Shown: piece by piece, positions 10,031 through 29,125 of the stretch | How positions within the stretch are numbered: position 1 is the stretch's first letter | Layout of the letters: the number at the start of each line of letters is the position of its first letter | Assembly (NCBI RefSeq): GCF_000186885.1 | Contig: NC_014972.1 | Span: forward strand, 1,710,001-1,742,000 | Direction of reading: 5' to 3' | Length of the DNA stretch: 32,000 nt | Source of the DNA: Desulfobulbus propionicus DSM 2032 | GTDB taxonomy: Bacteria; Desulfobacterota; Desulfobulbia; Desulfobulbales; Desulfobulbaceae | Program-made: the position numbers and the translations under genes | Notes under the pieces: generated by a model | Databases searched by the model: none | Told to the model about the DNA's origin: nothing | What the model saw: the letters and a program-made list of their open reading frames with translations, nothing else

Positions 10031-10336
10031 AGGGCAAACGATCACGGACCGCCAGTTTTTTTGACGGTTCCTCTCCAAGCAGCCGTCTGCCGCCGCACTA
10101 AACGTCTTCCCCGACCGTTCATGTCCTGCTTTTTCCATGCAGGAATTGCGGCCGGTTGCCTTGTCCACGGGCGCTTCGTTTGCCGACGGAGCGTCTGTTT
10201 TTTTGTGGCAGCTCAGAGGACAGGAAACCGCGGACTGCCGGACCCGCCGCGATTGCATCCAGGAGTGAACAGCCGGGCAACGGATCTCTTGCCGGTGTGT
10301 ACAACAGCTATCCTCTTTCTATCCACTATTCACTTA

Positions 10337-10473: not shown

Positions 10474-11946
10474 ATGTATGTACCACATTGCAAATACGAT
10501 ATTTTTATCAGTTACGCCCACGTTGACGACCTCCCCTTTCCCGGCTCATCCGCCGGCCATGCAAGAGGGTGGGTGACCACCTTTGTCGGTTGCCTCAAGA
10601 CCAGGCTCGCGCAAAAATTGGGCCGCAGCGATGCCTATTCCTTGTGGATGGATCATGAAATGGAAAGCTGGCCTTACATTTCGCAACAGTTGCTCAGCAA
10701 TATTCGTGATTCAGCCAGCTTGGTGGTCGTCCTCTCGCCCGGCTATGTGGCTTCACCGTGGTGCCAGCGGGAGCGCAACGCCTTTTTGGCTCTCCTGGAG
10801 GAACATGTGGCCCGTCCGGTGTTCCTTGTCGAACGGGAACGAGTGGAGGACGAGTTTCCCGCGGAACTGATGGATCGCAAGATTTTCCGCTTTTGGGTTC
10901 AGGAGCGCGAGGGCAAGGCACCGCGCATTCTGGGCGTTCCCTGCCCTGATCCGGCTGATCACGAATATTACAACCAGATCGATGACCTGTGTCAGGACAT
11001 CGCGACCAATCTGAAACGTCTCAGGGGTGCCGGTGGGGCGGTCACCGCTCTTGCCGCATCCTCTCCATCCAGCCTCGCGCCGGCCATGGCTCCCAGAGGA
11101 AGGGTATATCTCGCCCAGGTCACCGACGACCTTGATCTCCAGCGCAACAGTGTCAAGCGGTATCTGGAACAGGCCGGGGTGGAGGTGCTGCCGGCCACCT
11201 GGTATTCCCAGGATCCCAAGATCTTTCGCGCTCACGCCGAACAAGATCTTGAACGTTGCGACCTGTTCGTGCAACTGATCAGCGAGACAGCGGGCAAGAG
11301 ACCGGAAGACCTGCCCCAGGGGTATCCGCAGTTTCAGTTGGAGCTGGCCCTGGCAACCGATAAGCCCATTCTCCAGTGGCGAAACCCGACATTGGATTGT
11401 GCAGCCATCGAGGATAAGGCGCACCAGGCGTTTCTAACGGCAACAACGGTACGCTCCGAGGGGCTGGAAGATTTCAAAGGCGAGATCCTCAGGCGGCTGG
11501 TTACTCCGCCTGTGACTCACGGGTTGAAGAAGAGCGTCTATGTATTCGTGGACATGGAATCGGCGGATCGCCCTTTTGCCGAGCAGATCTGCGATATCCT
11601 CGATCGGTACGGCGCGGAATACGTACTGCCGGTGCAGAGCGACAATCCAACGGAAAACCGGCACGACCTGGAGCAGAATCTGGTCGAATGCGACGCGCTC
11701 ATCGTGATCTATGGCAGCGCGACCAAAACCTGGGTGCGCGGCCAATTGCAGGAAGCCCGCAAATCGGTCGCCTTGCGGAAAACGCCGCTGCGCGCCCTGG
11801 CCGTGTTTGAAGGGCCGCCCGAGGAAAAGGCGCCGCTGGACATGAAAATCCAGGGAATGCAGGTGCTCGATCATCGCAAGGGCATCAACGAACACCAGGT
11901 GCGGCAATTTCTTGACAGCCTGGTGGTGGCGGAGGCCGGCTCATGA
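10474..11946 (+). CDS. TIR-domain protein with two additional TIR/DUF4062-like Rossmannoid modules (490 aa)
   Basis: The homologous part starts at MYVPHCKYDIFISYAHVDD. The TIR-type block LVVVLSPGYVASPWCQRERNAFL keeps the Glu at the position of the TIR catalytic glutamate. Second module: RVYLAQV...LERCDLFVQLIS...KPILQW. Third module: VYVFVDME...LVECDALIVIYGS. The track ORF start at 10156 would run through the AT-rich promoter region and is rejected. Confidence 0.8.
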   Translation: MYVPHCKYDIFISYAHVDDLPFPGSSAGHARGWVTTFVGCLKTRLAQKLGRSDAYSLWMDHEMESWPYISQQLLSNIRDSASLVVVLSPGYVASPWCQRERNAFLALLEEHVARPVFLVERERVEDEFPAELMDRKIFRFWVQEREGKAPRILGVPCPDPADHEYYNQIDDLCQDIATNLKRLRGAGGAVTALAASSPSSLAPAMAPRGRVYLAQVTDDLDLQRNSVKRYLEQAGVEVLPATWYSQDPKIFRAHAEQDLERCDLFVQLISETAGKRPEDLPQGYPQFQLELALATDKPILQWRNPTLDCAAIEDKAHQAFLTATTVRSEGLEDFKGEILRRLVTPPVTHGLKKSVYVFVDMESADRPFAEQICDILDRYGAEYVLPVQSDNPTENRHDLEQNLVECDALIVIYGSATKTWVRGQLQEARKSVALRKTPLRALAVFEGPPEEKAPLDMKIQGMQVLDHRKGINEHQVRQFLDSLVVAEAGS

Positions 11947-14900
11947 GCACACGTCAACCGTACCCCGGCTTGCGCCCCTTTGACCGCGACGAGGCCGACA
12001 TCTTTTTTGGCCGGGAAGAACAGACCGACGATCTGCTCAGCCGCCTCAACGCCAGCCGTTTTCTCGCCATTGTCGGCACGTCCGGATGCGGCAAGTCGTC
12101 CCTGGTCCGCGCCGGCATGATTCCCGCCCTGGAGACCGGTTTCATGGCCGCCGCTGGCTCACGCTGGCAGTTCGTGCAGATGCGGCCGGGCAGCCACCCG
12201 ATCTGCAGATTGGCCACCGCCCTGGTCGACGAGGCGGAGCTGTTGCACGAGGGAGAGGAGCGATCGCAGGCCTTGGGATTCCTCAACGCGGCTCTGCGGC
12301 GGGGGCCAATGGGCCTGATTGACGCCTTGCGCCACACCCCGTTGCCGCCCCACACCAACCTGTTGATCCTGGTCGATCAGTTCGAGGAAATTTTTCGCTT
12401 CCGCCGGGAGGGAGACCGGGACGAGGCCGATGCCTTCGTGGCGCTGCTGCTGGCCAGCGCGCAACAACGCGATCTGCCGGTGTATGTCGTTTTGACCATG
12501 CGCTCCGATTTCATCGGCAGCTGCGCCCTGTTCAACGGTCTGCCCGAAGCGCTCAATCAGAGCCAATACTTGACTCCCCGCTTGAGCCGTGAACAACAAC
12601 ACATGGCCATTGTTGGCCCGGCACGCGTGTTCGGCGGCGAGGTGGAACCGGAACTGGTCAACGCGCTGCTCAACGCGATGGGCACGGACCCGGATCAACT
12701 GCCGCTGCTCCAGCATTTGCTGATGCGGTTGTGGCATGTTGCCGGATCGGTGCCACCGTCGTCTCCCGGTACGCCTTATCCAGGGGATGGTTCGTCGACA
12801 CGGCTGTTGACCATGGACGACTATGAAGCGGTCGGCGGTTTGCAGCAGGCCCTCTCCAACCATCTCAACGAGGCGTATGGGGAGCTGGACGGCAACCAGC
12901 GGCAGGCGGCCGAGATTCTGTTTCGTCGCCTGTCCGAACGAGGAACGGAACAGCGCGACATCCGCCGGCCCACGGTGTGCGTGGAGATAGAAGAGCTGAT
13001 CGGTATCCGCCATGACCAACTGGTTGCCGTGGTGGAGATCTTCCGCGCCCCTGATCGCAGTTTCCTTACCCCGCGGCAGCCAGAAGAGATTTTTCCCAAT
13101 ACCGTGCTGGATATCGCCCATGAATGCCTGATCCGCCAGTGGGACCGGTTGCGCGGCTGGGCAAGGGAGGAAGCGCGGTCGGCGGAAACCTACCGTCTTC
13201 TCGAACGGGCGGCGCAGCGCAAGGAAGAAGGCGAGGGCGGGTTTTATCGTCCCCCTGAATTGGAGGCAGCCCTGGCCTGGAGGGAACGGGAACAGCCTTC
13301 TCCGGTCTGGGCTCGGCGCTACGGCGGCGATTTTGCGCAGGCCATGCGGTTTTTAGCTGAAAGCGAGCAGGTCCACCGGTCCGAAGAAGCCCGGGCGGAA
13401 GAACGCCGGCGCAAGGAACTGCGCCGAAACCGCGTGCTCGCATGGGCCGGGGGGATGGCCACCGTCCTGCTGCTTGCCTTCATCGGCTTTTCGTCGTTGA
13501 ATTGGGTGGTTCCTCACCGCATCTACTGCAAGGACTTCACCAAACAATGGGGGAAGATCGTCCCCATCGGCCGCTTGCCTTCCTCGGCGGTCAGCCATCG
13601 ATCATGGACCATTCGCCTGACCAGCAAGGGCTGGAGCGGTGACATCCGAACCATGGAAGTGATCGATGCCCGCCATCAGCTCACTCCCAACCATTTCATC
13701 GGCACCTATTTGACCGACGCAAGACTGGTCACAACCCGGCAGGAAAAAGAATCGCGCTATGAATTGGCCTTTGACCGCGCCGGCCGGGTGGTTTCCGAGA
13801 CTGCCTTCGATCGGTTTGGCCGGATGGTCTGGGGCGCGGTGCACGCTCCGTATACCGAAGCGGAAGGGGTCCGGCCAACATCGACCCGGGCCACCTACCT
13901 GGGGCCGGATGGTCATCCTCAGCCGCAGGGTCGAAGTCGGGCCGAGTTTGTTGCAATTCGCTACGACACGAATGGCTTTGAGGAGGAATTGCGCTACACG
14001 GACCGGCAAGGCCGACCCATGCCGGGCCCAGACAACGCATTCGGCCAACAACGAATCTACGACAGCCGGGGACGGGAAATCCGCCGAACCTCGCTCAATG
14101 AGCGCGGACAGCCGATGGTCGACAAGGTGGGCAATGCAGTGGCTGAAGTTGACTATGACCCTGAAGACAATATTGTTGCGTCACGATTCCTCGACACCGC
14201 CAATCAGCCGACCCTGGTCAATGCCGACTATGCCAGCACCCGACTGGCTTATGACCGGTGGGGGCGGATGACCGAGCAGCGATTCTTTGGCTTGCGTGGC
14301 GAACCCGTCGTGGAGACGGGGCAGACCGGCGCCCACTGGATTGTCTGGCAATACGACGACCGGGGCAACGTCACCCATATCCGTCTGTACGATGCAGCCG
14401 ATGCGCCCATGGTCGGCGGCAAGGGGTATTTTGATTTTCCCGCCTTTGAGCAGCGTGCGTCCTTCACCGAACACAATCGTTTGAAAACGGTTGCCTACTT
14501 CGATCAAGGCAACGCTCCACTGACCGGCCCCGAAGGCTGGCATGGCTACCGGATCGAGTATGATCAGCGCGGCTTTGTCGCCCAAATCAGCTATTTCGAT
14601 CAAAACCTCAAGCCGGTCAACCTGCGCTCGTTCGGCTGGTCGCATTGGGCACGGGTGAACAATGCTTTTGGCCAGCCTCTTGAAGAACGGTTTTTCGACC
14701 AGGACAACCAGCCGGTGACCACGCTTGACGGCGGCTATCACCTGCGCAGGAACGCATACGATCCGGCTGGCAACTGTATTGCGCAAACTCATTTCGACGT
14801 GGACGATCAACCCGTGGCCGACAAAACCAACGGAGCTCACCGAGTGGCAACCGAGTTTGACCGTTTTCGCAATCCGGTCATGGTCGAGTATTTTGCTGCT

Positions 14901-16085
14901 GGGGACATGCGGATCAATACGAACCAGGGGGTGCATCGGCAGCAATCGACCTACGATGACTACGGCGGGCTGACGGACAGCAGTTGGTACGACAAGGACA
15001 ACCGCCCTGCCAATGGACCAGACGGCGTGCATCATGTTGCCTATGCCTACGATCAGCGGGGGATGATAACCCGCATGGAACGATACGATGCCAAGGGGCA
15101 GCCGGCTGTCGGCAAGGATGGCATGCATAAGGTGGTGTACGACCATAACGACAAAGGCCAGGAAATCAAATGGCAGGCGTTTGCTCTGGACGACAAACCG
15201 GCGGAAGACTCCGAGGGCAACCATCTGGCGATCAACGAGTTTGACCCGTGCGGCCGCGAGATCCGCAGTACCCGGTTGCGGGCGGATAACAGCCCCAACT
15301 GGGACCGCCAGTTGGGAATCGCCACCCGAAAACAGGTGTGGGACCGAGAAAACCGCTGGATCGAGCAGGCCTATTACGATGCCGAGGAACATTTGGTCAT
15401 GGGGCCGTTCGGGGCCGCCAGACAAATTGCTGTCTATCAGGCCGATGGCCGCGAGGAAATTCACCGCCATTTTGGAGCGAACGGCCAACTCGTCTACAAC
15501 CCGTTGGTCGGATATGCCGAGTTGCGCCTTCGTCGGGGCGATAACCACACCCTGTTGAGCGTGACCTTTTGGGGGTCAGATGGTTCCCCGATCAATGGTC
15601 CCCATGGCTATCATCGCGCCCAACAAGCGGAGGGATCATCGGAGGACAAGCGTTATTTCGATGCCCAGAACCATGAATGGCCCGCGCTGAGTCCGGAGGC
15701 CGCTGTTCCCATCATCTACATTACCGAGATCACCGACATCAAACAGCCCGCCGCCAAAGCCGGTCTGCACGCCGGCGACGTGTTGTGGCAATACGGCGAT
15801 TGGTCGTTTGCCGGTGCCCTGGAGGCAGAACGTGCTCAGGGGAACACGACCGACCCGGTCTTGCAGGTATGGCAAGCTTTTTGGGACGAAGTCGCATACT
15901 GGTTCTGGAGAGAGGACCCAGAGGGGTCGGTGACCGTGCCGGTGATCGTGATTCGCGATGGGCAACCCGAGCGCTTGACTCTTTCGCCGCTTCCGCAAGA
16001 TTTCGACCGTACCGGGCTGCGTTGCGATCAGCGGATGGTACCGAGTGCCTTGTTCGAGGCATGGAAAGCCGCAGCGGCAAAGTAA
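11943..16085 (+). CDS. Membrane-anchored STAND-type P-loop NTPase with YD-like repeat array and C-terminal PDZ-like domain (1380 aa)
   Basis: The N-terminus PYPGLRPFDRDEADIFFGREEQ, Walker A GTSGCGKSS, Walker B LLILVDQFEE, TMRSDF and LPLLQHLLMRLW form the pattern of 'novel STAND' (nSTAND-like) NTPases. GGAGG lies 7 nt upstream, and the ATG overlaps the TIR gene stop (ATGA 11943-11946). Confidence 0.8.
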   Translation: MSTRQPYPGLRPFDRDEADIFFGREEQTDDLLSRLNASRFLAIVGTSGCGKSSLVRAGMIPALETGFMAAAGSRWQFVQMRPGSHPICRLATALVDEAELLHEGEERSQALGFLNAALRRGPMGLIDALRHTPLPPHTNLLILVDQFEEIFRFRREGDRDEADAFVALLLASAQQRDLPVYVVLTMRSDFIGSCALFNGLPEALNQSQYLTPRLSREQQHMAIVGPARVFGGEVEPELVNALLNAMGTDPDQLPLLQHLLMRLWHVAGSVPPSSPGTPYPGDGSSTRLLTMDDYEAVGGLQQALSNHLNEAYGELDGNQRQAAEILFRRLSERGTEQRDIRRPTVCVEIEELIGIRHDQLVAVVEIFRAPDRSFLTPRQPEEIFPNTVLDIAHECLIRQWDRLRGWAREEARSAETYRLLERAAQRKEEGEGGFYRPPELEAALAWREREQPSPVWARRYGGDFAQAMRFLAESEQVHRSEEARAEERRRKELRRNRVLAWAGGMATVLLLAFIGFSSLNWVVPHRIYCKDFTKQWGKIVPIGRLPSSAVSHRSWTIRLTSKGWSGDIRTMEVIDARHQLTPNHFIGTYLTDARLVTTRQEKESRYELAFDRAGRVVSETAFDRFGRMVWGAVHAPYTEAEGVRPTSTRATYLGPDGHPQPQGRSRAEFVAIRYDTNGFEEELRYTDRQGRPMPGPDNAFGQQRIYDSRGREIRRTSLNERGQPMVDKVGNAVAEVDYDPEDNIVASRFLDTANQPTLVNADYASTRLAYDRWGRMTEQRFFGLRGEPVVETGQTGAHWIVWQYDDRGNVTHIRLYDAADAPMVGGKGYFDFPAFEQRASFTEHNRLKTVAYFDQGNAPLTGPEGWHGYRIEYDQRGFVAQISYFDQNLKPVNLRSFGWSHWARVNNAFGQPLEERFFDQDNQPVTTLDGGYHLRRNAYDPAGNCIAQTHFDVDDQPVADKTNGAHRVATEFDRFRNPVMVEYFAAGDMRINTNQGVHRQQSTYDDYGGLTDSSWYDKDNRPANGPDGVHHVAYAYDQRGMITRMERYDAKGQPAVGKDGMHKVVYDHNDKGQEIKWQAFALDDKPAEDSEGNHLAINEFDPCGREIRSTRLRADNSPNWDRQLGIATRKQVWDRENRWIEQAYYDAEEHLVMGPFGAARQIAVYQADGREEIHRHFGANGQLVYNPLVGYAELRLRRGDNHTLLSVTFWGSDGSPINGPHGYHRAQQAEGSSEDKRYFDAQNHEWPALSPEAAVPIIYITEITDIKQPAAKAGLHAGDVLWQYGDWSFAGALEAERAQGNTTDPVLQVWQAFWDEVAYWFWREDPEGSVTVPVIVIRDGQPERLTLSPLPQDFDRTGLRCDQRMVPSALFEAWKAAAAK
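13434..13511 (+). other. Predicted single transmembrane helix within the STAND protein
   Basis: VLAWAGGMATVLLLAFIGFSSLNWVV (about aa 498-523) is preceded by the basic stretch EERRRKELRRNR. The positive-inside rule places the NTPase in the cytoplasm. Prediction by eye only. Confidence 0.55.
13756..15680 (+). other. Protein-level array of about 18-20 degenerate ~32-33-aa YD/RHS-like repeats
   Basis: Recurrent pattern [YF][YF]D-x4-P-x5-G-x-H-x5-YD-x2-G-x7. Example units: YFDQGNAPLTGPEGWHGYRIEYDQRGFVAQIS, FFDQDNQPVTTLDGGYHLRRNAYDPAGNCIAQT, WYDKDNRPANGPDGVHHVAYAYDQRGMITRME, RYDAKGQPAVGKDGMHKVVYDHNDKGQEIKWQ. There is no DNA-level repetition. Confidence 0.65.
15705..15990 (+). other. PDZ-like domain at the C-terminus of the STAND protein
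   Basis: IIYITEITDIKQPAAKAGLHAGDVLWQYGDWSF ... VPVIVIRDGQPERLTLSP resembles the PDZ signature (xPAxxAGLxxGDhI ... V.V.R.G). Assignment by eye. Confidence 0.5.
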
Positions 16086-16238: not shown

Positions 16239-16268
16239 TTGACGCTTGCTGCCCGCTTTTGTTAGTAT
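16239..16268 (+). promoter_or_regulatory. Candidate sigma70-type promoter of the sulfatase-family gene
   Basis: TTGACG (16239-16244), an 18-nt spacer, then TAGTAT (16263-16268), about 75 nt upstream of the GTG start. Sequence match only. Confidence 0.3.
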
Positions 16269-16342: not shown

Positions 16343-18460
16343 GTGAAAAATATTATCGCCTCCTTCTTTCTGCTCATCGCCTGTTTTTTGCCCGCGGTCT
16401 GGCGGCTGGTCTACCAGGGATTGGGGGAACCCATTGGCCTGCTGTCCGACCTCGGCTGTGGCCTGGGCATTCTGCTGCTCTCCCTGTTCAGCCCCCATTG
16501 GGTCCGCATCCCGGTGCTGATTCTCTGGGTATTGGCCCAGGCAGCGGCCCGCGAGCTGATCCTCACCATGCAGCGGCTGCCCAATTGGCAGGATTTGCAA
16601 TACCTGGCCGATCCCGAGTTCATCGCCAACAGCACCTCCGGATTCAATCTATCGTCCCCCTATCTGATCGGTGTGTTCATCCTCTCCACGCTGCTGGCCT
16701 GCTGCTTTCCAACCAGACGGCCAGGACGGCAATGGCTGCTGCGGGGCAGCGCGGTGTGTGTGGCCCTGCTGCTCGCCCATACCGTGGTGAACAGCCGGTT
16801 CGACAAGCAGAGCGTCATTGCCCGCTACAATCCCATGCACTGGTTCGCCGTCGACAGTCTGACCTCGGCGCTGCAGCGGCAATCCCTGCCCGATGCGGCC
16901 AGTCTGCCCACGGGCCTCAACGAGCTGGAGCTCGACGCCCCCTCCCTGCTCGCCAAGAAGGGCAGGGCCAAGAATGTGCTCATCGTCATTCTCGAAGGCA
17001 TTCCAGGCATGTACCATCCGGAAATCGGCAAGACGATGAACATGGCTTCCACGGACATCGAGATGCACCGTCTGGCCGCGGCCACCAGCGAGGCCATGCT
17101 GATTCCCGATTTCACCGCCCACAGCCACCAGACCATCCGCGGCCTCTACTCGATCCTGTGCGGCGATTTCAGCAAGCTGTCCTGGGACACGCCCAAGGCC
17201 TTTGAACTCCAGTCCAACCCGGCCCGCGCCCAGGACTGCCTGCCTTCCCTGATGAGTCAGTTCGGCTGGTCCACCCATTTTCTCCAGGCCGCTGGCCTTG
17301 GTTTCATGGGCAAGGACCGGATCATGCCGCGAATGGGCTTTCAGCAGGTGCACGGCACCGAGTGGTTCACCGAGCCCAATCCCTACCCGTTTGAATGGGG
17401 GGTGGTGGACAAGGTCTTCTTTCAGGGCGCGGCCAAGTATATTGCCCAGCTGCGCGCCAAGAAGCACCCCTGGATGCTGACCTTGCTGACCGTGGGCACC
17501 CATCAGCCCTATGCCGTGCCGGACGATGTCGCCAGCCATTTTGGTTCGCGGAAAGATGCCACCGTGGATCTGCTCGACCAGGCGGTGGCCGAGTTTATCG
17601 AGCAACTGCGCCGGGATGGCGTGCTCAAGGATACCCTGGTGATCATCACCTCGGATGAATCCCACGGCTCGCCCTTGGCTGATTGGGTGAGCAGCTGGGG
17701 ACTCGGCATGGTGTTGGCGCCGGAACAAAAACGGCTGCCGAGGATCAAGGAAGGCGGCTTCGGTCTGGTGGACATCACGGCCTCGGTGCTCGATTACCTG
17801 CAGGTCAAGATGCCGCCGACCCTGATCGGCCGCAGTTTTTTCCGCGTCTACGACACGCCACGGGAGATGGTCTCCTATACCACCTCGAAACGGCGCTGGC
17901 ATACCGTCGACAACCGGCGCTACGAGTGTGCCGATGACGGTCGCTGCCGCGTGGGCACGGCCCCAAGCCTGCTCGGTCCGCCGCCGGCCGAGTTTGTCGC
18001 CGACCGTGACGGCGGTCCGCGGCTGGCCGGCATTGCCCGTGTTCTGGATCAGAAGCTGCTCACCGACGAAACGACCAAGACTTTGCAGTTTGCCAACGGT
18101 GAACGGCGCAAACTGCCGGAAAAAATCACCAACGAATGGGGGGATAACCTGGTGGGGGCGCAATACCTCGATTTCCCGGCAAAATCAAAGGTGCAGGTGG
18201 CCATCCGCTATACCGCGCTCAAGGCGCCGCCCGCCGGCATCCAGCTCAAACTGCTGGTCAAGGAGTGGGAATACACCCAGCACGACATTCCCATCCCGGT
18301 CTTCCCGGTGGTGCACAAAGGCGAGGAGGGCGAGGTGGAGTTCGAGTTCGCCAATCCCAAGGCCCGCCAGTATTTTTCCTTTCACCTGCTGGGTGAAGGC
18401 AAGAATGCCGAGATTCGGATGGACGAGTTCAATGTGACCATCGACCAGGAGGAAGGATGA
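16343..18460 (+). CDS. Membrane-anchored sulfatase/alkaline-phosphatase superfamily enzyme (LtaS/OpgB/phosphoglycerol-transferase-like)
   Basis: GTG start. The N-terminal ~170 aa has several hydrophobic helices. The catalytic domain has NVLIVILEGIPG, HSHQTIRGLYSILCG (putative Thr nucleophile), TVGTHQPY and IITSDESHG. An extra ~150-aa C-terminal region has no recognisable motif. Confidence 0.8.
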   Translation: MKNIIASFFLLIACFLPAVWRLVYQGLGEPIGLLSDLGCGLGILLLSLFSPHWVRIPVLILWVLAQAAARELILTMQRLPNWQDLQYLADPEFIANSTSGFNLSSPYLIGVFILSTLLACCFPTRRPGRQWLLRGSAVCVALLLAHTVVNSRFDKQSVIARYNPMHWFAVDSLTSALQRQSLPDAASLPTGLNELELDAPSLLAKKGRAKNVLIVILEGIPGMYHPEIGKTMNMASTDIEMHRLAAATSEAMLIPDFTAHSHQTIRGLYSILCGDFSKLSWDTPKAFELQSNPARAQDCLPSLMSQFGWSTHFLQAAGLGFMGKDRIMPRMGFQQVHGTEWFTEPNPYPFEWGVVDKVFFQGAAKYIAQLRAKKHPWMLTLLTVGTHQPYAVPDDVASHFGSRKDATVDLLDQAVAEFIEQLRRDGVLKDTLVIITSDESHGSPLADWVSSWGLGMVLAPEQKRLPRIKEGGFGLVDITASVLDYLQVKMPPTLIGRSFFRVYDTPREMVSYTTSKRRWHTVDNRRYECADDGRCRVGTAPSLLGPPPAEFVADRDGGPRLAGIARVLDQKLLTDETTKTLQFANGERRKLPEKITNEWGDNLVGAQYLDFPAKSKVQVAIRYTALKAPPAGIQLKLLVKEWEYTQHDIPIPVFPVVHKGEEGEVEFEFANPKARQYFSFHLLGEGKNAEIRMDEFNVTIDQEEG

Positions 18461-21699: not shown

Positions 21700-22770
21700 G
21701 TGGTGAGTAACGGGAAAGAATCCCAAGCAATGCTGGCGGTCCTCATTGATGCGGATAATGCGCAACCGTCTGTAACAGACGCGTTGATGGCTGAAATTGC
21801 CAAATATGGAATTGCGAGCGTCAAGCGCATCTATGGTGACTGGACTACTCCGCATTTAGTTGGGTGGAAATCTATCGTCCTAGAATATTCCATTCAACCC
21901 ATCCAGCAATTTCGTTACACTACCGGTAAGAACGCCACCGACAGCGCCATGATTATAGATGCGATGGATTTACTGTACACTAGGAGGTTTACGGGGTTTT
22001 GTTTGGTATCAAGCGATAGCGATTTTACACGTTTGGCTTCACGAATTCGCGAGGAAGGTTTTCCTGTATATGGATTTGGGGAGCGAAAAACGCCTCAAGC
22101 TTTTGTGTCAGCCTGCGATAAATTCATCTACACCGAAGTGCTGTGTACCGAAGAGCACGAATTATCCTCTGGCCACGCATATATCCGTGTCCCGGAAACC
22201 ACGAATGCATTAAAAGGCGACGCCAAGTTAGTCAATCTCATGAGACGAGCGATTGAAGCAGCGTCTGATGAAAATGGATGGGCACTATTAAGCGGGGTGG
22301 GGACGAATATTGCCAAACAATCACCTGAATTTGATCCCCGAAACTACGGTTACACTAAACTCGGTGAACTCGTTAAAGCCATGCAGTTATTTGAAATCGA
22401 GAAACGCGGCAATCGAGGTAACCAATCAACGGTTATCTATATCCGCGATCAGCGAAAAAAACGACTGCCTGAGACGCCCTCACTATCAATAGATCCGGTT
22501 TTTGTGAAACACTGGGATCAGTTTTTTGCCCGCTACAACGAAGGTGACAGCTTGGATGGAGTCATTGAAAAGATTACTCCTTTTTTGGGACTATTTATCA
22601 CCATGCCAATCCAAGGATTAAAAGGACTCCTTCATAAATCCAACCTTCCTGAGGACTTTCTGACACGTTTTAAGATCGGTCAAACGATATCCGTAACGAT
22701 TAAAGCAATCCGAAAAGAGAAGTATCAGGTTGAACTGCAAAGAAATCCGTCATTATGCGAGGAGGATTGA
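21700..22770 (+). CDS. NYN (LabA/DUF88-type PIN-like nuclease) - OST-HTH/LOTUS - S1-like RNA-binding domain protein
   Basis: GTG start with AGGAG 6 nt upstream. NYN blocks: AVLIDADN, GKNATDSAMIIDAMDLL and FCLVSSDSDFTRLASRIREEGFPVYGFG. LOTUS-like: GWALLSGVGTNIAKQSPEFDPRNYGYTKLGELVKAM. S1-like: GDSLDGVIEKITPFLGLFITMPIQGLKGLLHKSNL...FKIGQTISVTIKAI. Visibly lower GC than its surroundings. Confidence 0.8.
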   Translation: MVSNGKESQAMLAVLIDADNAQPSVTDALMAEIAKYGIASVKRIYGDWTTPHLVGWKSIVLEYSIQPIQQFRYTTGKNATDSAMIIDAMDLLYTRRFTGFCLVSSDSDFTRLASRIREEGFPVYGFGERKTPQAFVSACDKFIYTEVLCTEEHELSSGHAYIRVPETTNALKGDAKLVNLMRRAIEAASDENGWALLSGVGTNIAKQSPEFDPRNYGYTKLGELVKAMQLFEIEKRGNRGNQSTVIYIRDQRKKRLPETPSLSIDPVFVKHWDQFFARYNEGDSLDGVIEKITPFLGLFITMPIQGLKGLLHKSNLPEDFLTRFKIGQTISVTIKAIRKEKYQVELQRNPSLCEED

Positions 22771-23538: not shown

Positions 23539-25371
23539 ATGACCGAACATCAGTACGACGAATCCAAGATCAAGACGCTCAGTTCGCTGGAGCACATCCG
23601 CAAGCGGCCGGGCATGTACATCGGCCGCCTCGGCGACGGCTCCCATCCGGATGACGGCATCTATATCCTGCTCAAGGAGATCCTGGACAACGCGGTCGAC
23701 GAGTTCATCATGGGCCACGGCAAGCGGATCGATATCCATATCGGCGAGGACGGCCTCTGCCGGGTACGCGACTACGGCCGCGGCATTCCGCTGGGCAAGG
23801 TGGTGGAGTGTGTGTCGGTGATCAACACCGGCGCCAAGTACAACACCGAGGTGTTCCAATTTTCGGTCGGTCTCAACGGCGTGGGGACCAAGGCGGTCAA
23901 CGCCCTCTCGAGCCACTTCACGGTCACTGCCTTCCGCGACGGCCGGTACAAGACCGCCGTCTTTGCCCAAGGGCTATTGCAACGCGAGGAAGAAGGCGAG
24001 ACCACGGAGAAGAACGGCACCCTGATCGAGTTTCTCCCCGACAGCGAAAGTTTCCCCGGCTTTCGCTTCGATCCCCAGTATGTCGACCAGCGACTGTGGC
24101 GCTACGCCTATCTCAACGCGGGGCTGAGCCTTTATCTGGATCGCGATCTCTATCTGTCCAAAAACGGCCTGCTCGATCTCCTGGATCGCGAGGTGAGCAG
24201 CGAACGGATCTATCCGCCGATCCATTTCGTCGACAAATCGATCGAATTTGCCTTCACCCACACCGACGACTACGGCGAGTCCTACTTCTCGTTTGTCAAC
24301 GGTACCTACACCAGCGAGGGCGGCACCCATCTGTCCGCCTTCCGTGAGGGCATTCTCAAGGGCATCAACGAGTTCACCGGCAAGAAGTTCAACGGTCTGG
24401 ACGTGCGCGACGGCATTGTCGGCATCCTGGCGGTCAAGGTCCAGGAGCCGGTGTTCGAGTCGCAAACCAAGAACAAGCTGGGCAACACCGACATTCGTGG
24501 CCCCATTGTCAACGCGGTTAAGGATGCGGTGGCCACCCACCTGTACAAGTTTCCGGAGACGGCCGAAGTCTTGGTCGACAAGGTGCAGCGCAACGAGCGG
24601 GTGCGGCGGGAGTTGCAGTCGGTGCGCCGCGACGCCAAGGCCAAGGCCAAGAAGATCGCCTTCAAGATCCCGCAGCTCAAGGACTGCAAGTACCACCCAT
24701 CGCGCGGCCAGGCCTCCAAGCCGGGCCGGGAGAACATGCTCTTCATCACCGAGGGCCAGAGTGCCGCCGGCTCGATCGTCAGCGCCCGCGACCCCATGAC
24801 CCAAGCGGTGTTCAGCCTCAAGGGCAAGCCGATGAACGTGCTCGGCCAGCGGCTCGACGTGCTTTACAAGAACGAGGAGATGTACTCCTTGATGCAGGCC
24901 CTCAACATCGAGGACTCGATCGCCGATCTCCGTTACGACAAGGTCATCCTGGCCACCGACGCCGACGTCGACGGCCTCCATATCCGCAACCTGCTGCTGA
25001 CCTTTTTCCTCCACTACTTCGAGCAGCTGATCAAACAGGAGCGGGTCTATATTTTGGAGACGCCGATCTTCCGGGTGCGCAACAAGGAAAAGACCTTTTA
25101 CTGCTATTCCGATCGCGACATGGACGAGGCCATCACCGCGCTCAAGGTCAAGAGCAAGGCCGACCGGGCGGTGGAAACCACCCGCTTTAAGGGGCTGGGC
25201 GAGATTTCGCCCCCCGAATTCAAGCAGTTCATCGGCCAGGATATGCGGCTGCGGCAGGTGCGGCTTGATCGTCTCAGCGAGGTCAGCCGGGTGCTCAAGT
25301 TCTACATGGGCAAGAACACGCCGGAGCGCAAACAATACATCATGGACCACCTGATCGTGAGGCCGGTATGA
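23539..25371 (+). CDS. parE: Type IIA DNA topoisomerase subunit B (ParE/GyrB family, short form)
   Basis: GHKL ATPase N-terminus (LEHIRKRPGMYIG, EILDNAVDE, DYGRGIP), Toprim EGQSAAGS and ATDADVDGLHI. At 610 aa it lacks the GyrB insertion, hence ParE-like. The symbol is tentative. Confidence 0.75.
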   Translation: MTEHQYDESKIKTLSSLEHIRKRPGMYIGRLGDGSHPDDGIYILLKEILDNAVDEFIMGHGKRIDIHIGEDGLCRVRDYGRGIPLGKVVECVSVINTGAKYNTEVFQFSVGLNGVGTKAVNALSSHFTVTAFRDGRYKTAVFAQGLLQREEEGETTEKNGTLIEFLPDSESFPGFRFDPQYVDQRLWRYAYLNAGLSLYLDRDLYLSKNGLLDLLDREVSSERIYPPIHFVDKSIEFAFTHTDDYGESYFSFVNGTYTSEGGTHLSAFREGILKGINEFTGKKFNGLDVRDGIVGILAVKVQEPVFESQTKNKLGNTDIRGPIVNAVKDAVATHLYKFPETAEVLVDKVQRNERVRRELQSVRRDAKAKAKKIAFKIPQLKDCKYHPSRGQASKPGRENMLFITEGQSAAGSIVSARDPMTQAVFSLKGKPMNVLGQRLDVLYKNEEMYSLMQALNIEDSIADLRYDKVILATDADVDGLHIRNLLLTFFLHYFEQLIKQERVYILETPIFRVRNKEKTFYCYSDRDMDEAITALKVKSKADRAVETTRFKGLGEISPPEFKQFIGQDMRLRQVRLDRLSEVSRVLKFYMGKNTPERKQYIMDHLIVRPV

Positions 25372-27380
25372 GCGAAACCACCGAGCAGCCGCGCGGCAAG
25401 CTCCATCAACTGTTCGATACCAATTTTCTCGACTACACCTCCTACGTGATCCGCGAGCGGGCCATCCCGGATGTGGACGACGGCCTCAAGCCGGTGCAGC
25501 GACGCATCCTCCAAACGCTCGCCAACATGGACGACGGCCGTTTCCACAAGGTGGCCAACGTGGTCGGCGAAACCATGAAGCTCCATCCACACGGCGATCA
25601 ATCGATCTTCGATGCCTTGGTCAACCTGGCCAACAAGGGCTATCTGATTGACCGCCAGGGCAACTTCGGCAACATCTTCACCGGCGACCAGGCCTCGGCG
25701 CCGCGTTACATCGAGTGCCGATTGTCGCCGCTGGCGCGCGAAACCCTGTTCAACAAGGACCTGACCGAGTTCATCGACTCCTACGACGGCCGCATGCAGG
25801 AGCCGGTACGGCTGCCGGCCAAGATCCCGCTGCTGCTGCTCTTGGGTGCGGAAGGCATTGCCGTGGGCATGGCCACCAAGATCATGCCGCACAACTTCGG
25901 CGAGCTGCTCCAGGCCCAGATCGATTACCTGCGCGGCCAGGAATTTGTGCTCTATCCGGATTTTCCCCGCGGCGGCATCATTGATGTCGCCGATTACAAC
26001 CACGGCAACGGCCGTATCCGCTGCCGGGCCAAGCTGGAACAGCCGGATTCCAAAACCATCGTCATCACCGAGCTGCCCTACAATCTCACCACCCAAGCCC
26101 TGATCGAGTCGATCGAGAAGGCGGCCAAGGCGAACAAGCTCAAGATTGCCTCGATCAACGACTACACTGCCGAAAAGGTCGAAGTCGAGATCAAGCTGGC
26201 GCGAGGGGTGCTCGCGGAGGAGACCATCGACGCCCTCTACGCCTTCACCGACTGCGAGCTGAGCGTTTCGCCCAGCCTGGTGACCATTGTCGACAACATG
26301 CCGCGACAGATGGCGGTCGAGGAGGTCCTGCGGCGCAACACCGACCGGCTGGTGGCCAACCTGGAGCGCGAACTGCAGATCGAATTGGGACGGCTGGAGG
26401 ACAAGTGGCACGCGCGTAAGCTGGAGCAGATCTTCATCGAGGAGCGGCTCTACAAGCAGATCGAGGAGAAGACCAATTACAAGGAGGTGCAGGCCACGGT
26501 CCGCGACTCGTTGCTCCCCTTTGCCAACGAACTCAAGCGCAAGATCACGCCCGAGGACGTTGAGCGGCTGCTGGAGATCAAGATTCGCCGTATCTCGCGC
26601 TATGACATCAATCGCCAGCAGAAGGAACTGCGCGACATCGAGAAGCAGATCGGTCAGATCAAGAAGCACCTGACCGACATGATCGGCTTCACCGTTGCCT
26701 ACCTCGGGGAACTGGCAGCCAAGTACGGGTCGCAATTTCCACGAGCTAGCGAGCTGCGCGCCTTTGACGAGGTCGATGCCCGCGCTGCGGCCCTGTCCAA
26801 TCTCACCGTCGGCTACCACCGCGAATCAGGCTTTCTTGGTCACAAGATCAAGGCTGAGGACGAGGCGCATGACCTGGATTGTGCCTGTTCCGAGTACGAC
26901 CGGCTCTTGCTGATCTTCAAGGACGGCCTCTACAAGGTGATCCATGTGCCGGACAAGCTGTTTGTCGGGCCCGACCTGTACTGGCTGGGGGTGGTGAAGA
27001 ACGATCTGGTGTTCAACCTGATTTATCGCCACGGCCCGGAGAACCTGGCCTATGTCAAACGCTTCGCCACGCCCAAGTTCATCCTCGGCCGGGACTACCG
27101 GCTGTTCGAGGCGGACAAGCGATCCGCCATCCTGCTGTTGCTGCTCGGCAAGGAGGGGTTGCGGGTGCGGGCCAGCTTGGCGCCGTCGGCCCGGGCCAAG
27201 TACAACGCGGTGGAAATCGAACTCGACGAGGTGCTGATCAAGGGCGTGAGCGCCAAAGGCAAGCGTATTGCCAACCGGGCCGTGCGCCGGGTGACCGACA
27301 TCACCGGCACCCCCAAAAAAGCGCCGGTCAGTCCGCTGGAACTGCCGGGTTTCGGTGGTGGCAGCGGGGAGAAAGAATAG
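25368..27380 (+). CDS. parC: Type IIA DNA topoisomerase subunit A (ParC/GyrA family, short form)
   Basis: FLDYTSYVIRERAIPDVDDGLKPVQRRIL, HPHGDQSIFDALVNL, QGNFGN and the active-site Tyr context APRYIECRL. Only 670 aa. ATGA overlap with the B subunit. The symbol is tentative. Confidence 0.75.
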   Translation: MSETTEQPRGKLHQLFDTNFLDYTSYVIRERAIPDVDDGLKPVQRRILQTLANMDDGRFHKVANVVGETMKLHPHGDQSIFDALVNLANKGYLIDRQGNFGNIFTGDQASAPRYIECRLSPLARETLFNKDLTEFIDSYDGRMQEPVRLPAKIPLLLLLGAEGIAVGMATKIMPHNFGELLQAQIDYLRGQEFVLYPDFPRGGIIDVADYNHGNGRIRCRAKLEQPDSKTIVITELPYNLTTQALIESIEKAAKANKLKIASINDYTAEKVEVEIKLARGVLAEETIDALYAFTDCELSVSPSLVTIVDNMPRQMAVEEVLRRNTDRLVANLERELQIELGRLEDKWHARKLEQIFIEERLYKQIEEKTNYKEVQATVRDSLLPFANELKRKITPEDVERLLEIKIRRISRYDINRQQKELRDIEKQIGQIKKHLTDMIGFTVAYLGELAAKYGSQFPRASELRAFDEVDARAAALSNLTVGYHRESGFLGHKIKAEDEAHDLDCACSEYDRLLLIFKDGLYKVIHVPDKLFVGPDLYWLGVVKNDLVFNLIYRHGPENLAYVKRFATPKFILGRDYRLFEADKRSAILLLLLGKEGLRVRASLAPSARAKYNAVEIELDEVLIKGVSAKGKRIANRAVRRVTDITGTPKKAPVSPLELPGFGGGSGEKE

Positions 27381-27442
27381 GTGATGTGCTGTCGTTCCAA
27401 TCAACAGGCAGGTATCAGAAAGATTTCTAAAGGAGATCGTTC

Positions 27443-29125
27443 GTGAATATTAATGCTTCGATTATTGACCAGCGCCTTTCTGGTATTCAAGAAGAGATAC
27501 GCGACCAGGCTCAAGCCGAACTGAAAATCAATGATCCTGAAAAATTAAAATCTCTGGCTTTTGTCTACCTCTGTGTCAAAACCATGCTTGATCTTGACCC
27601 TGAGGAGGTTTTTGAGTGTTTAACCGAAGGAGGTGGTGATTTTGGTGTGGATGCCATGCACCTGACCGAAGAAATGGACGGTGAATTTACCGTAACCCTC
27701 TTTCAAGGGAAATATGATCGAAGCCTGACCGGTGAGAAGCAGTTCGGTGAAAATGCAATTAATGCAATGATCAATGCCGTTCGTCATATTTTTAATCCTC
27801 AGTCGCAGTTAGGGGCTATCAATGAACGGCTGAAGATCAAAGTGGAAGCTGCGCGTTCACTCATTCGTGACGGACTTATACCACGGGTGCGAGCTATTGC
27901 CTGCAATAATGGCGCGCGTTGGAATCATGCTGCTCAAGAGTCCATAACTCGGACCGGTTTCGGTGAACAAGTGACGTGGGAGCATGTCAACCACGACGTC
28001 CTGATTGGTGTGCTGCAACGGGTTAAACCTGTAAATGCAACCTTGCGGCTGACAGGAAAAGCGATCGTTGAGGATATGAATTTTAGTCGCGTCTGTATCG
28101 GTCGAATACCTGTAACCGAAATAGGTGCACTTATGCGAAACCATGGTGAGCGTCTTTTGGAACGCAATATTCGCAGGTATCTTGGACTTCATGGAAACCG
28201 AGTGAATGAAGGGATCAGTGCAACACTTCTTTCAGATAAACCTTCTGATTTTTATTTTTTTAACAACGGATTAACATTGGTCTGCAACGATTTTTCCTAC
28301 AATGCCCTGCAACAAAGTGACTATATGGTCAAAGTTGAGAATCTTCAGATTGTCAATGGTGGGCAGACTTGTATGACCATTTTCAAGACTCTCGAAGAAA
28401 TGCAACAGAATGATGATAGCTCTTTGAATGATGCCTCGGTTTTGGTGCGTCTCTATAAACTTCCTAAAGACAACGAAGATCTGGTGCTGAGGATAACACA
28501 CGCAACTAACAGCCAAAATCCAGTTGATCTAAAAGATTTGCGATCAAACGATGAGAAGCAGCAACGTCTATCCCAGAGTATCCAGGAGTTGGGGTATACG
28601 TATCGTCGGAAACGGATGGAGACAGCAGCAAAGGCAACGGAAATAACCTCGGGAGCGGCAGCCGAGGCAATTCTTGCTGTTTGGAGACAAGCCCCGCACC
28701 AAGCAAAATTCCTGACTCGAGAGCACTTCGGCAAATTGTATCATGTCATCTTTGCAGAGGACCTCAATGGCGCTCAAGCTGTGCTTGCGGTTCTGCTGTA
28801 CCGTATTGCTGAAAACCACAGAAAACGACCGGCAGAGGGCGATCCTCTTTTTGTTCGTTACGCCTCGTGCTTTATTGCCATGCAAATGGGAAAACGACTG
28901 CTGCAGGTGCTTAAGATTTCTCTTGATAAACTTGATCATCGTAATTTTGCACAGGCTAAAACGGCAATTGAAACTCATGGTGAGAACTATTTTCACGCCG
29001 CTGTGCAGGATGTTGATAGAGCCTTGAAAAGCCTTTACGGAGATCGAGAAGTCTCCATGCAGCAACTTTCCGCCACCTTCCGTCGAGGAGATCTCATTGA
29101 GCAGTTGAGCAGTAGCCCGATCTGA
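27443..29125 (+). CDS. AIPR-family abortive-infection (phage resistance) protein
   Basis: GTG start with AGGAG 7 nt upstream. Blocks GGGDFGVDAMH, NIRRYLGLHGNRVNEGISATL, FYFFNNGLTLVC and IVNGGQT match my recollection of the AIPR (Abi-like) family. The gene is clearly AT-richer than both neighbours. Confidence 0.75.
   Translation: MNINASIIDQRLSGIQEEIRDQAQAELKINDPEKLKSLAFVYLCVKTMLDLDPEEVFECLTEGGGDFGVDAMHLTEEMDGEFTVTLFQGKYDRSLTGEKQFGENAINAMINAVRHIFNPQSQLGAINERLKIKVEAARSLIRDGLIPRVRAIACNNGARWNHAAQESITRTGFGEQVTWEHVNHDVLIGVLQRVKPVNATLRLTGKAIVEDMNFSRVCIGRIPVTEIGALMRNHGERLLERNIRRYLGLHGNRVNEGISATLLSDKPSDFYFFNNGLTLVCNDFSYNALQQSDYMVKVENLQIVNGGQTCMTIFKTLEEMQQNDDSSLNDASVLVRLYKLPKDNEDLVLRITHATNSQNPVDLKDLRSNDEKQQRLSQSIQELGYTYRRKRMETAAKATEITSGAAAEAILAVWRQAPHQAKFLTREHFGKLYHVIFAEDLNGAQAVLAVLLYRIAENHRKRPAEGDPLFVRYASCFIAMQMGKRLLQVLKISLDKLDHRNFAQAKTAIETHGENYFHAAVQDVDRALKSLYGDREVSMQQLSATFRRGDLIEQLSSSPI

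Follow-up and report, generated by a model that had tools for sequence, protein, structure and literature searches.

A STAND NTPase with a predicted periplasmic ectodomain of divergent YD-type repeats is encoded together with a TIR-domain protein in Desulfobulbus propionicus

The nSTAND1 clade of STAND NTPases was defined by Kaur, Iyer, Burroughs and Aravind (2021, eLife, PMC8195603), and a 2026 survey of STAND proteins (PMC13581612) gives TPR, WD40 and FGE-type domains as their sensors. In those bacterial immune proteins of the STAND/NLR-like kind that have been studied, phage proteins are sensed in the cytoplasm. Here we describe two overlapping genes of Desulfobulbus propionicus DSM 2032 that lie in a window of 32,000 nucleotides (NC_014972.1, positions 1,710,001 to 1,742,000; all positions below are counted from the start of this window, and the features of the two genes lie on its plus strand). 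The first gene (10474-11946) encodes a TIR-domain protein of 490 residues and the second (11943-16085) a protein of 1380 residues, hereafter the receptor, which is predicted to be a type-II inner-membrane receptor with a periplasmic ectodomain of about 860 residues. From its N-terminus the receptor comprises an nSTAND1 NTPase domain, a single transmembrane helix, a membrane-proximal cap, an array of YD-like repeats and a PDZ-like domain. An earlier annotation of the window (the original prediction) had called such an array unusual for a STAND NTPase, an assessment with which the sensors given in the 2026 survey agree.

The array consists of 19-20 YD-like beta-hairpin repeats of 32 residues each and occupies residues 605-1246 (13755-15680). 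Autocorrelation of residues 561-1260, scored with BLOSUM62, gave its top peak at a lag of 32 residues (z = 10.6). Multiples of this lag (64/65, 97 and 129) reached z values of about 5 and two shorter lags, 12 and 21, values of about 4; in 500 shuffles the maximum over all lags was z = 4.07. A hidden Markov model seeded with nine clear units retrieved eight more from the receptor and, after iteration on the family of homologs described below, recognized 19 units between residues 610 and 1222; an AlphaFold2 model contains 20 regular beta-hairpins between residues 605 and 1239. Among 119 homologs the spacing of consecutive units is 32 residues in 57% of cases and 33 residues in 16%, these two spacings thus predominating family-wide (73% of consecutive units), and a family protein carries a median of 20 units and a maximum of 39. 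The family consensus of the repeat is YDERGNLTEEAYFDADGKPVLGKDG. The original prediction had placed a single transmembrane helix and about 18-20 degenerate repeats, with the pattern [YF][YF]D-x4-P-x5-G-x-H-x5-YD-x2-G and a period of about 32-33 residues, between positions 13434 and 15680. Its motif is correct, its unit count agrees with both the profile matches and the modeled hairpins, and its period is borne out, with 32 residues commoner than 33. The span is likewise accurate: nucleotide 13434 belongs to codon 498 of the 11943-16085 reading frame (VLAWAGG...), the first residue of the hydrophobic segment, and nucleotide 15680 to codon 1246, directly past the last recognizable unit, 'RYFDAQN'.

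The repeats had also been described as diverged at the DNA level and old. Consistent with this, we found no tandem or dispersed repeat of about 96 nucleotides in the DNA of the array. Within the receptor the units are on average 17% identical to one another, whereas a unit and its same-position counterpart in orthologs from other phyla are 52% identical. Judged by these identities, the array is old, its units are collinear with those of orthologs and each is conserved at its own position; it is neither recently amplified nor hypervariable.

An AlphaFold2 model of residues 486-1380, built from an alignment of 39 homologs, has a mean predicted local distance difference test score (pLDDT) of 90.7 and a predicted TM-score (pTM) of 0.79. 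It begins with one unbroken helix (residues 487-521) that spans the juxtamembrane and transmembrane segments, and continues with a two-hairpin cap, the 20 hairpins and a C-terminal alpha/beta domain. In each hairpin a tight turn joins a first strand of 6 residues to a second of 7, and 14-residue loops between hairpins complete the period of 32. When the motif is placed on the model, 'x-Y-x-Y' closes strand 1, 'D-x-x-G' is the tight turn, '[YF][YF]' closes strand 2 and 'D-x4-P-x5-G-x-H' forms the long connecting loop. The cap (residues 524-604; 13512-13754), whose strands fall at model positions 39-89, consists of a loop and two hairpins that are not of the YD type. The family as a whole conserves this cap (consensus YCKDFTKQWG...SWTIRLTSKGW), and many distant matches of a phmmer search begin to align at query residue 1-3.

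Profile comparisons relate one half of this repeat to the repeats of Rhs proteins. In the receptor, TIGR01643 (YD_repeat_2x) scores 18.2 bits against a cut-off of 15.8, and the Pfam model RHS_repeat scores 14.7 bits, under its cut-off of 22. RHS_repeat matches are on record for about a third of the relatives, and P0039 (46.6 bits) and P0084 (30.1 bits) exceeded the cut-off when relatives were rescanned. A sequence search of the PDB with the ectodomain found nothing, and only the profile of the repeat unit (32 columns, from 66 family units, searched against 177,635 PDB sequences) gave matches. At E <0.1 these were Rhs proteins only, the best being 7Q97 (E = 2.8e-6) and the others 8H8B, 8UXT, 8UY4, 8H8A, 7PQ5, 5KIS and 8QJA. 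With one exception, profile positions 1-15 alone, the YD-turn half, align to Rhs; the second half-unit ([YF]D-x4-P-x5-G-x-H) has no counterpart in the Rhs matches. The matched YD motifs in RhsA (7Q97) are mostly spaced 20-26 residues apart, or multiples thereof, and it is the family-specific 14-residue loop that sets the period at 32 residues instead of about 21. Both the resemblance of the YD-x2-G half to RHS/YD repeats and the division into two alternating half-units with a non-classical period, as originally proposed, are thus supported, the latter by the autocorrelation together with the unit profile. We conclude that the array is built from a YD-type hairpin repeat that has diverged, a long conserved loop having taken the place of its second turn, and that it is partly homologous to Rhs repeats. 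Among the libraries scanned, neither Pfam nor NCBIfam holds a dedicated model for the 32-residue repeat; of two candidates considered, PF27244 is GtfB_M and PF25023 is TEN_YD-shell, and each gave faint matches only.

The protein itself does not belong to the Rhs toxins. Were it a shell of the classical Rhs/YD polymorphic-toxin kind, one that encapsulates and delivers a C-terminal toxin, this would account for the results of a Foldseek search of the PDB with the model, in which the 45 best matches were without exception YD shells (Rhs, Tc-toxin BC, teneurin or SGS1), with E = 2.8e-25 to 2.9e-11 and Rhs shells at the top (E 1e-25). Such a shell would account equally for the TIGR01643 score and for the label 'YD repeat-containing protein' that several relatives carry at JGI. 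However, the TM-scores to these shells are only 0.1-0.28, with root-mean-square deviations of 18-32 Å, indicating poor global superposition; the Rhs core motif DPxGL / PxxxxDPxGL is absent from the receptor sequence, and Pfam and NCBIfam scans of the receptor gave no match to the Rhs-associated core family. Moreover, the C-terminus has a predicted PDZ fold and no toxin, the N-terminal part is made up of a cytoplasmic ATPase and then a transmembrane helix in place of a PAAR, VgrG or secretion domain, and the array has about 40 strands only, with a period of 32 rather than about 21 residues. We have rejected the toxin reading on these grounds and give it almost no credence. For an array of only about 40 strands, a closed shell seems unlikely, and a full Rhs cocoon impossible. 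Of the "beta-rich solenoid or shell" that had been envisaged for the ectodomain, then, the beta-rich part stands, given the confidently modeled hairpins, and the solenoid or shell form stays hypothetical. The next group of PDB matches after the YD shells were single-layer OspA sheets, and the best matches in a viral structure library were MORN/YwqK hairpin repeats (E = 1e-16).

Residues 498-523 (13434-13511) form the predicted transmembrane helix. This is the sole region of the receptor in which a 19-residue segment has a mean Kyte-Doolittle hydropathy above 1.3 (peak 2.11), and it holds 25 uncharged residues. On its N-terminal side lies a charged helical linker (residues 429-497; 13227-13433) ending in RAEERRRKELRRNR, the positive cytoplasmic flank, with 8 lysine or arginine residues in 15, compared with 4 on the C-terminal side. 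Indeed, across 215 family members the N-terminal flank contains on average 5.6 such residues and the C-terminal flank 2.2, and the N-terminal flank is the richer in 203. The hydrophobic helix sits between head and repeats whatever the type of head (in 111 of 127 relatives at a stricter threshold). As this helix is also present behind kinase, TIR and cyclase heads, it is part of the repeat module rather than of the STAND helical domain, and we have rejected a buried STAND helix as an explanation of the hydrophobic segment. In one relative, P0057, a Sec-type signal peptide and a trypsin-like protease (residues 1-260) replace both head and helix, and this protein appears to be a secreted or periplasmic form that lacks a cytoplasmic head. 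The head domains all require cytoplasmic nucleotides. Conservation of the helix, the positive-inside bias, the signal-peptide variant and the nucleotide-dependent heads together support a predicted topology of N-in/C-out with a periplasmic ectodomain, in keeping with the original placement of the array outside the membrane behind a single helix.

The topology was predicted with hydropathy and charge-bias rules, and we considered whether the segment might not span the membrane, in which case the array would be a sensor inside the cytoplasm, on a par with the TPR or WD40 arrays of STAND proteins. We regard this as very improbable in view of the hydropathy of the segment (a mean of 2.1 over 19 residues), its 25 uncharged residues and unequally charged flanks (8 versus 4), the retention of the helix after unrelated heads, the family-wide charge bias (203 of 215), the signal-peptide variant, and a C-terminal domain that is closest to periplasmic PDZ domains.

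This C-terminal domain (residues 1247-1380; 15681-16082), which contains the motif PAAKAGLHAGDVLWQYG, had been overlooked in the original prediction. An AlphaFold2 model of the last 144 residues on their own has a pLDDT of 89, and the top 50 PDB matches returned for it by Foldseek are all PDZ domains (E = 1.4e-4 to 0.08; TMt up to 0.63), mostly periplasmic ones (RseP, MucP, DegS, DegQ and HtrA); the modeled domain also contains a helical insert. Pfam PDZ models gave no match in the receptor at E<=1, though the motif PAAKAGLHAGDV is present, and relatives have Pfam PDZ_6 or PDZ_2 at the corresponding position. A BLASTP comparison of the C-terminal domain with the relatives that carry a Pfam PDZ match was not significant, with one weak collinear match (E = 0.054), so that the assignment relies on the fold search. 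On its modeled fold, the C-terminal stretch of about 130 residues appears to be a divergent PDZ-like domain. We note that in Desulfosediminicola flagellatus (NZ_CP050698.1; L013:3881-4480) an open reading frame of 199 residues is 42% identical to the last repeats and the PDZ-like C-terminus only; it is perhaps a remnant, perhaps an independent PDZ-like protein.

The PDZ likeness raises the question of whether the ectodomain acts as a cleavable inhibitor and not as a receptor that binds a ligand. Regulated proteolysis would then be the switch: much as in the RseA/DegS/RseP pathway, periplasmic proteases would gain access to the PDZ/YD ectodomain under envelope stress, and cleavage would free or derepress the cytoplasmic STAND module. 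That the closest folds are the PDZ domains of RseP, MucP, DegS and DegQ, and that a trypsin-like protease is joined to the same repeats in some relatives, would fit such a switch. On the other hand, the cassette encodes no protease, the PDZ likeness is at the level of fold only (E = 1e-4 to 0.05), and the scheme is a sub-type of a sensor model rather than a true alternative to it; we consider it unlikely.

The family to which the receptor belongs is large and its heads are diverse. A word-indexed search with residues 530-1380 yielded 119 proteins, and an exhaustive phmmer search over 1.84 billion cluster representatives matched 3622 proteins with a threshold of E<=1e-3, of which 2282 had E<=1e-10 and 852 had E<=1e-30. 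Among the sources that are named are Thermoanaerobaculia, Desulfobacteraceae, Chlorobium, Gammaproteobacteria, Gemmataceae and Azoarcus. In the 119 closest relatives the heads are nSTAND1 (57), TIR (18), protein kinase (18) and AAA_35 (2), with single cases of an adenylate/guanylate cyclase, a trypsin, a caspase plus nSTAND1 and a TIR plus nSTAND1. The 57 nSTAND1 fusions also answer a survey question raised in the original prediction, namely whether this type of repeat occurs with NTPases elsewhere. In two much longer relatives, P0167 (2883 residues) and P0241 (3011 residues), a TIR domain lies mid-protein (around residues 1470-1760), with the repeats on the side that matches the query.

Since the same module stands behind many output heads, the simplest reading is that it provides a common input, and the combination of transmembrane helix and repeats, with or without a PDZ domain, is best read as a shared extracytoplasmic input (sensor) module that is not specific to STAND proteins, a modularity that the original prediction had also overlooked. 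A different role for the ectodomain would be that of an anchoring or adhesion scaffold (teneurin-like, wall-binding, or a ruler spanning the periplasm), with the STAND module sensing a cytoplasmic cue and the membrane merely localizing the TIR and STAND proteins. In its favor, the fold matches include the YD shells of teneurins, which are adhesion modules, the ectodomain shows conservation and not diversification, and about 40 strands at roughly 4.8 Å each would come close to the width of the periplasm. However, kinases, cyclase, TIR domains and proteases are classical outputs, for which a common input is the simplest explanation, and past the NTPase domain the receptor has only a 70-residue charged linker and no other candidate sensor region. 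A purely structural role therefore strikes us as improbable. Extending the sensor reading to the family as a whole, we can suggest only tentatively that the module defines a large class of envelope-surveillance receptors that respond to periplasmic invaders or damage and directly drive immune or death heads in the cytoplasm (STAND with TIR, TIR by itself, caspase or kinase).

In the receptor the head is an nSTAND1 NTPase domain (residues 6-428; 11958-13226). The Pfam model PF20703 (nSTAND1) matches with E = 2.8e-97 over model positions 1-372 of 379, and both the Walker A motif (GTSGCGKS, at residue 45) and the Walker B motif (LILVDQFEE, at residue 141) are intact; by model coverage and motifs, this is a full-length member of the nSTAND1 clade. 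The stop codon of the upstream gene overlaps the start codon of the receptor gene (ATGA, 4 bp); the two genes are translationally coupled. The 490-residue partner that this upstream gene encodes has an N-terminal TIR domain (TIR_2, E = 6.6e-23), a DUF4062 region (E = 2.3e-6) and a third alpha/beta region, and gene callers predicted an identical 490-residue product in three metagenomes. The sequence WCQRE of its TIR domain aligns with the motif WCLNE of the SNC1 TIR domain, and we take the glutamate of this WCxxE-type motif to be the catalytic one, as in plant TIRs. With a TIR fold and this conserved glutamate, the partner is a predicted NADase. A terminator-like hairpin 3' of tonB (10167-10198, plus strand; 14-bp stem, T7 tail) separates exbB-exbD-tonB from the TIR/STAND pair and marks the pair as a transcription unit of its own.

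The pairing of the two genes, another feature overlooked in the original prediction, is conserved. A profile search of genome contigs with a single-protein query found no relative; an alignment of 13 sequences found 7 loci. Six homolog loci, which come from Thermoanaerobaculia, Desulfobacteraceae, Chlorobium and metagenomes, were examined. In all of them, as in the window, a TIR-containing gene of 447-508 codons lies directly upstream with a 4-bp overlap, and the surrounding genes vary from locus to locus. The partner occurs in two forms that are unrelated by BLASTP. The TIR-DUF4062 form is found in the window, in Chlorobium (44% identical to the window partner) and at the locus of P0003, and a SIR2_2-TIR_2 form is found at the loci of P0004, P0006 and P0008; the partner of P0040 has the same C-terminal TIR_2, with no SIR2_2 match recorded. 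The upstream genes of L001, L003 and L006 are of one form as against those of the window, L004 and L014, which are of the other, and the receptor stays collinear throughout. Such swapping of effectors is typical of conflict systems.

STAND NTPases signal through ligand-induced oligomerization, TIR NADases must assemble to form an active site, and periplasmic PDZ domains, for example the one in DegS, sense the C-termini of peptides. We think it somewhat likely that the two genes form a signaling or conflict cassette in which a periplasmic cue would lead to STAND assembly and TIR activation. Specifically, the ectodomain, through its YD-like sheet, its PDZ domain or both, would bind a periplasmic ligand such as a peptide C-terminus or a component of the envelope or of an invader. 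Binding would alter the conformation or clustering of the ectodomain, and the single helix would relay the signal, probably by clustering, into the cytoplasm. The STAND module would then oligomerize in an ATP-dependent manner. The STAND oligomer would gather the co-translated TIR protein and so turn on its NAD-cleaving or signaling activity, and the active TIR protein could bring about growth arrest or death.

Several observations weigh against such a cassette, at least in this form. In the window, as at other homolog loci, the two genes lie among housekeeping genes, and defense or mobile genes (HsdR, GmrSD, patatin, an integrase and a TacA toxin-antitoxin gene) are neighbors at only some of the homolog loci. 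PADLOC-DB v2 assigns no system to the pair and yields only weak, P-loop-type matches (mad8, E = 1.2e-5, 23 bits, in the P-loop region; PDC-S66, E = 6e-4). We recognized no adaptor domain that would join the TIR protein to the STAND protein; the topology is predicted and the ligand hypothetical. Finally, the ectodomain is conserved at each position (52% across phyla) and is not hypervariable, for which reason a conserved self or envelope ligand would fit better than a fast arms race with phages.

Other features of the window lie outside the pair. Long antisense open reading frames overlie the receptor gene (for example 14181-15548, minus strand) and are treated here as artefacts of high G+C content. 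A sulfatase-family membrane protein, similar to LTA synthase and phosphoglycerol transferases, is encoded at 16343-18460 on the same strand, 258 bp downstream of the receptor gene; it has a promoter-like site of its own (16239-16268) and is not kept beside the homologs. Further downstream, 21700-22770 encodes a protein with NYN nuclease, OST-HTH/LOTUS and S1 domains in a dip of G+C content (0.48 at 22-23 kb). The region 23539-29125 contains genes for a GyrB-like protein (610 residues) and a short GyrA/TopoIV-A-like protein (670 residues) that overlap by 4 bp, followed by an AIPR (abortive-infection) gene at 27443-29125 (where the G+C content falls to 0.45-0.53 over about 27-29 kb), and may be a separate defense or mobile island.

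In the literature that we searched, this receptor architecture is not described, and we found no paper with both a TIR domain and a YD repeat. YD/Rhs sensors are not mentioned in PMC8195603, in the 2020 conflict-systems and 2024 diversity-generating retroelement papers or in the 2026 STAND survey; a passing mention of 'transmembrane STAND ATPases' in one preprint is the only related statement found. The combination of a YD variant, a STAND-TIR conflict system and a single-pass receptor thus appears to be new, and the family, abundant in databases, appears unannotated and unstudied. If the proposed mechanism is correct, a STAND ATPase with a periplasmic sensor would mean that some of these switches are gated at the envelope, possibly before or without entry of a genome. 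If the module does define a class of envelope-surveillance receptors, this would also be the first instance in which a switch of the STAND/NLR-like kind is controlled from beyond the cytoplasm. The module takes YD repeats past their known roles in toxin cocoons and teneurin adhesion, and a single solved ligand would aid the annotation of a large receptor family of >2000 sequence clusters.

With the nSTAND1 conflict systems (PMC8195603) and the STAND/Avs/NLR-like antiphage receptors (PMC13581612), the receptor shares an nSTAND1 NTPase, a swapped TIR-type effector and, at some loci, a defense-island setting. It differs in that its effector is encoded in trans with no recognized adaptor domain, and in the position of its sensor: the sensors described for STAND proteins are TPR, WD40 or FGE/C-lectin arrays that lie in the cytoplasm, whereas C-terminal to its NTPase we found only the linker, the transmembrane helix and a predicted extracytoplasmic ectodomain, with no sensor in the compartment of the NTPase.

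The array is most closely comparable with the shells of Rhs proteins, Tc toxins and teneurins (RhsA, 7Q97; TcB-TcC, 4O9X; teneurin, 6FB3), which are likewise built from hairpin repeats with a tight Y-D-x-x-G-(R/N) turn, and teneurins also carry their array outside the cell on a type-II membrane protein. In contrast to Rhs shells, with their period of about 21 residues, the receptor array has a period of 32 and a D-x4-P-x5-G-x-H loop that is without Rhs counterpart; it has only about 20 hairpins, lacks the core/aspartyl-protease motif, toxin and plug, and has an NTPase in the cytoplasm, not a secretion adaptor, as its fusion partner. A local hairpin meander sheet is also seen in MORN/YwqK repeats and in OspA. 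However, the window protein does not show the MORN signature (one relative matches MORN_2 with 17.9 bits, under the cut-off of 29.6), and the YD motif and the PDB profile matches favor Rhs over MORN.

In overall layout the receptor is reminiscent of PASTA/NHL Ser/Thr kinases, CHASE2 receptors and Toll-like receptors, in which one transmembrane helix joins an outside sensor domain to a cytoplasmic head, and we see no evidence of common descent of the whole receptor with these proteins. On the tentative reading of the module as a class of envelope-surveillance receptors, it would be the prokaryotic equivalent of Toll-like receptors and other pattern-recognition receptors that span the membrane. 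The relatives in which a TIR head precedes the transmembrane helix and the repeats mirror the Toll-like layout of repeat ectodomain, transmembrane helix and TIR domain. This is a functional analogy: the orientation is opposite, the head being N-terminal in the receptor family, and YD-like hairpins take the place of the leucine-rich repeats of Toll-like receptors.

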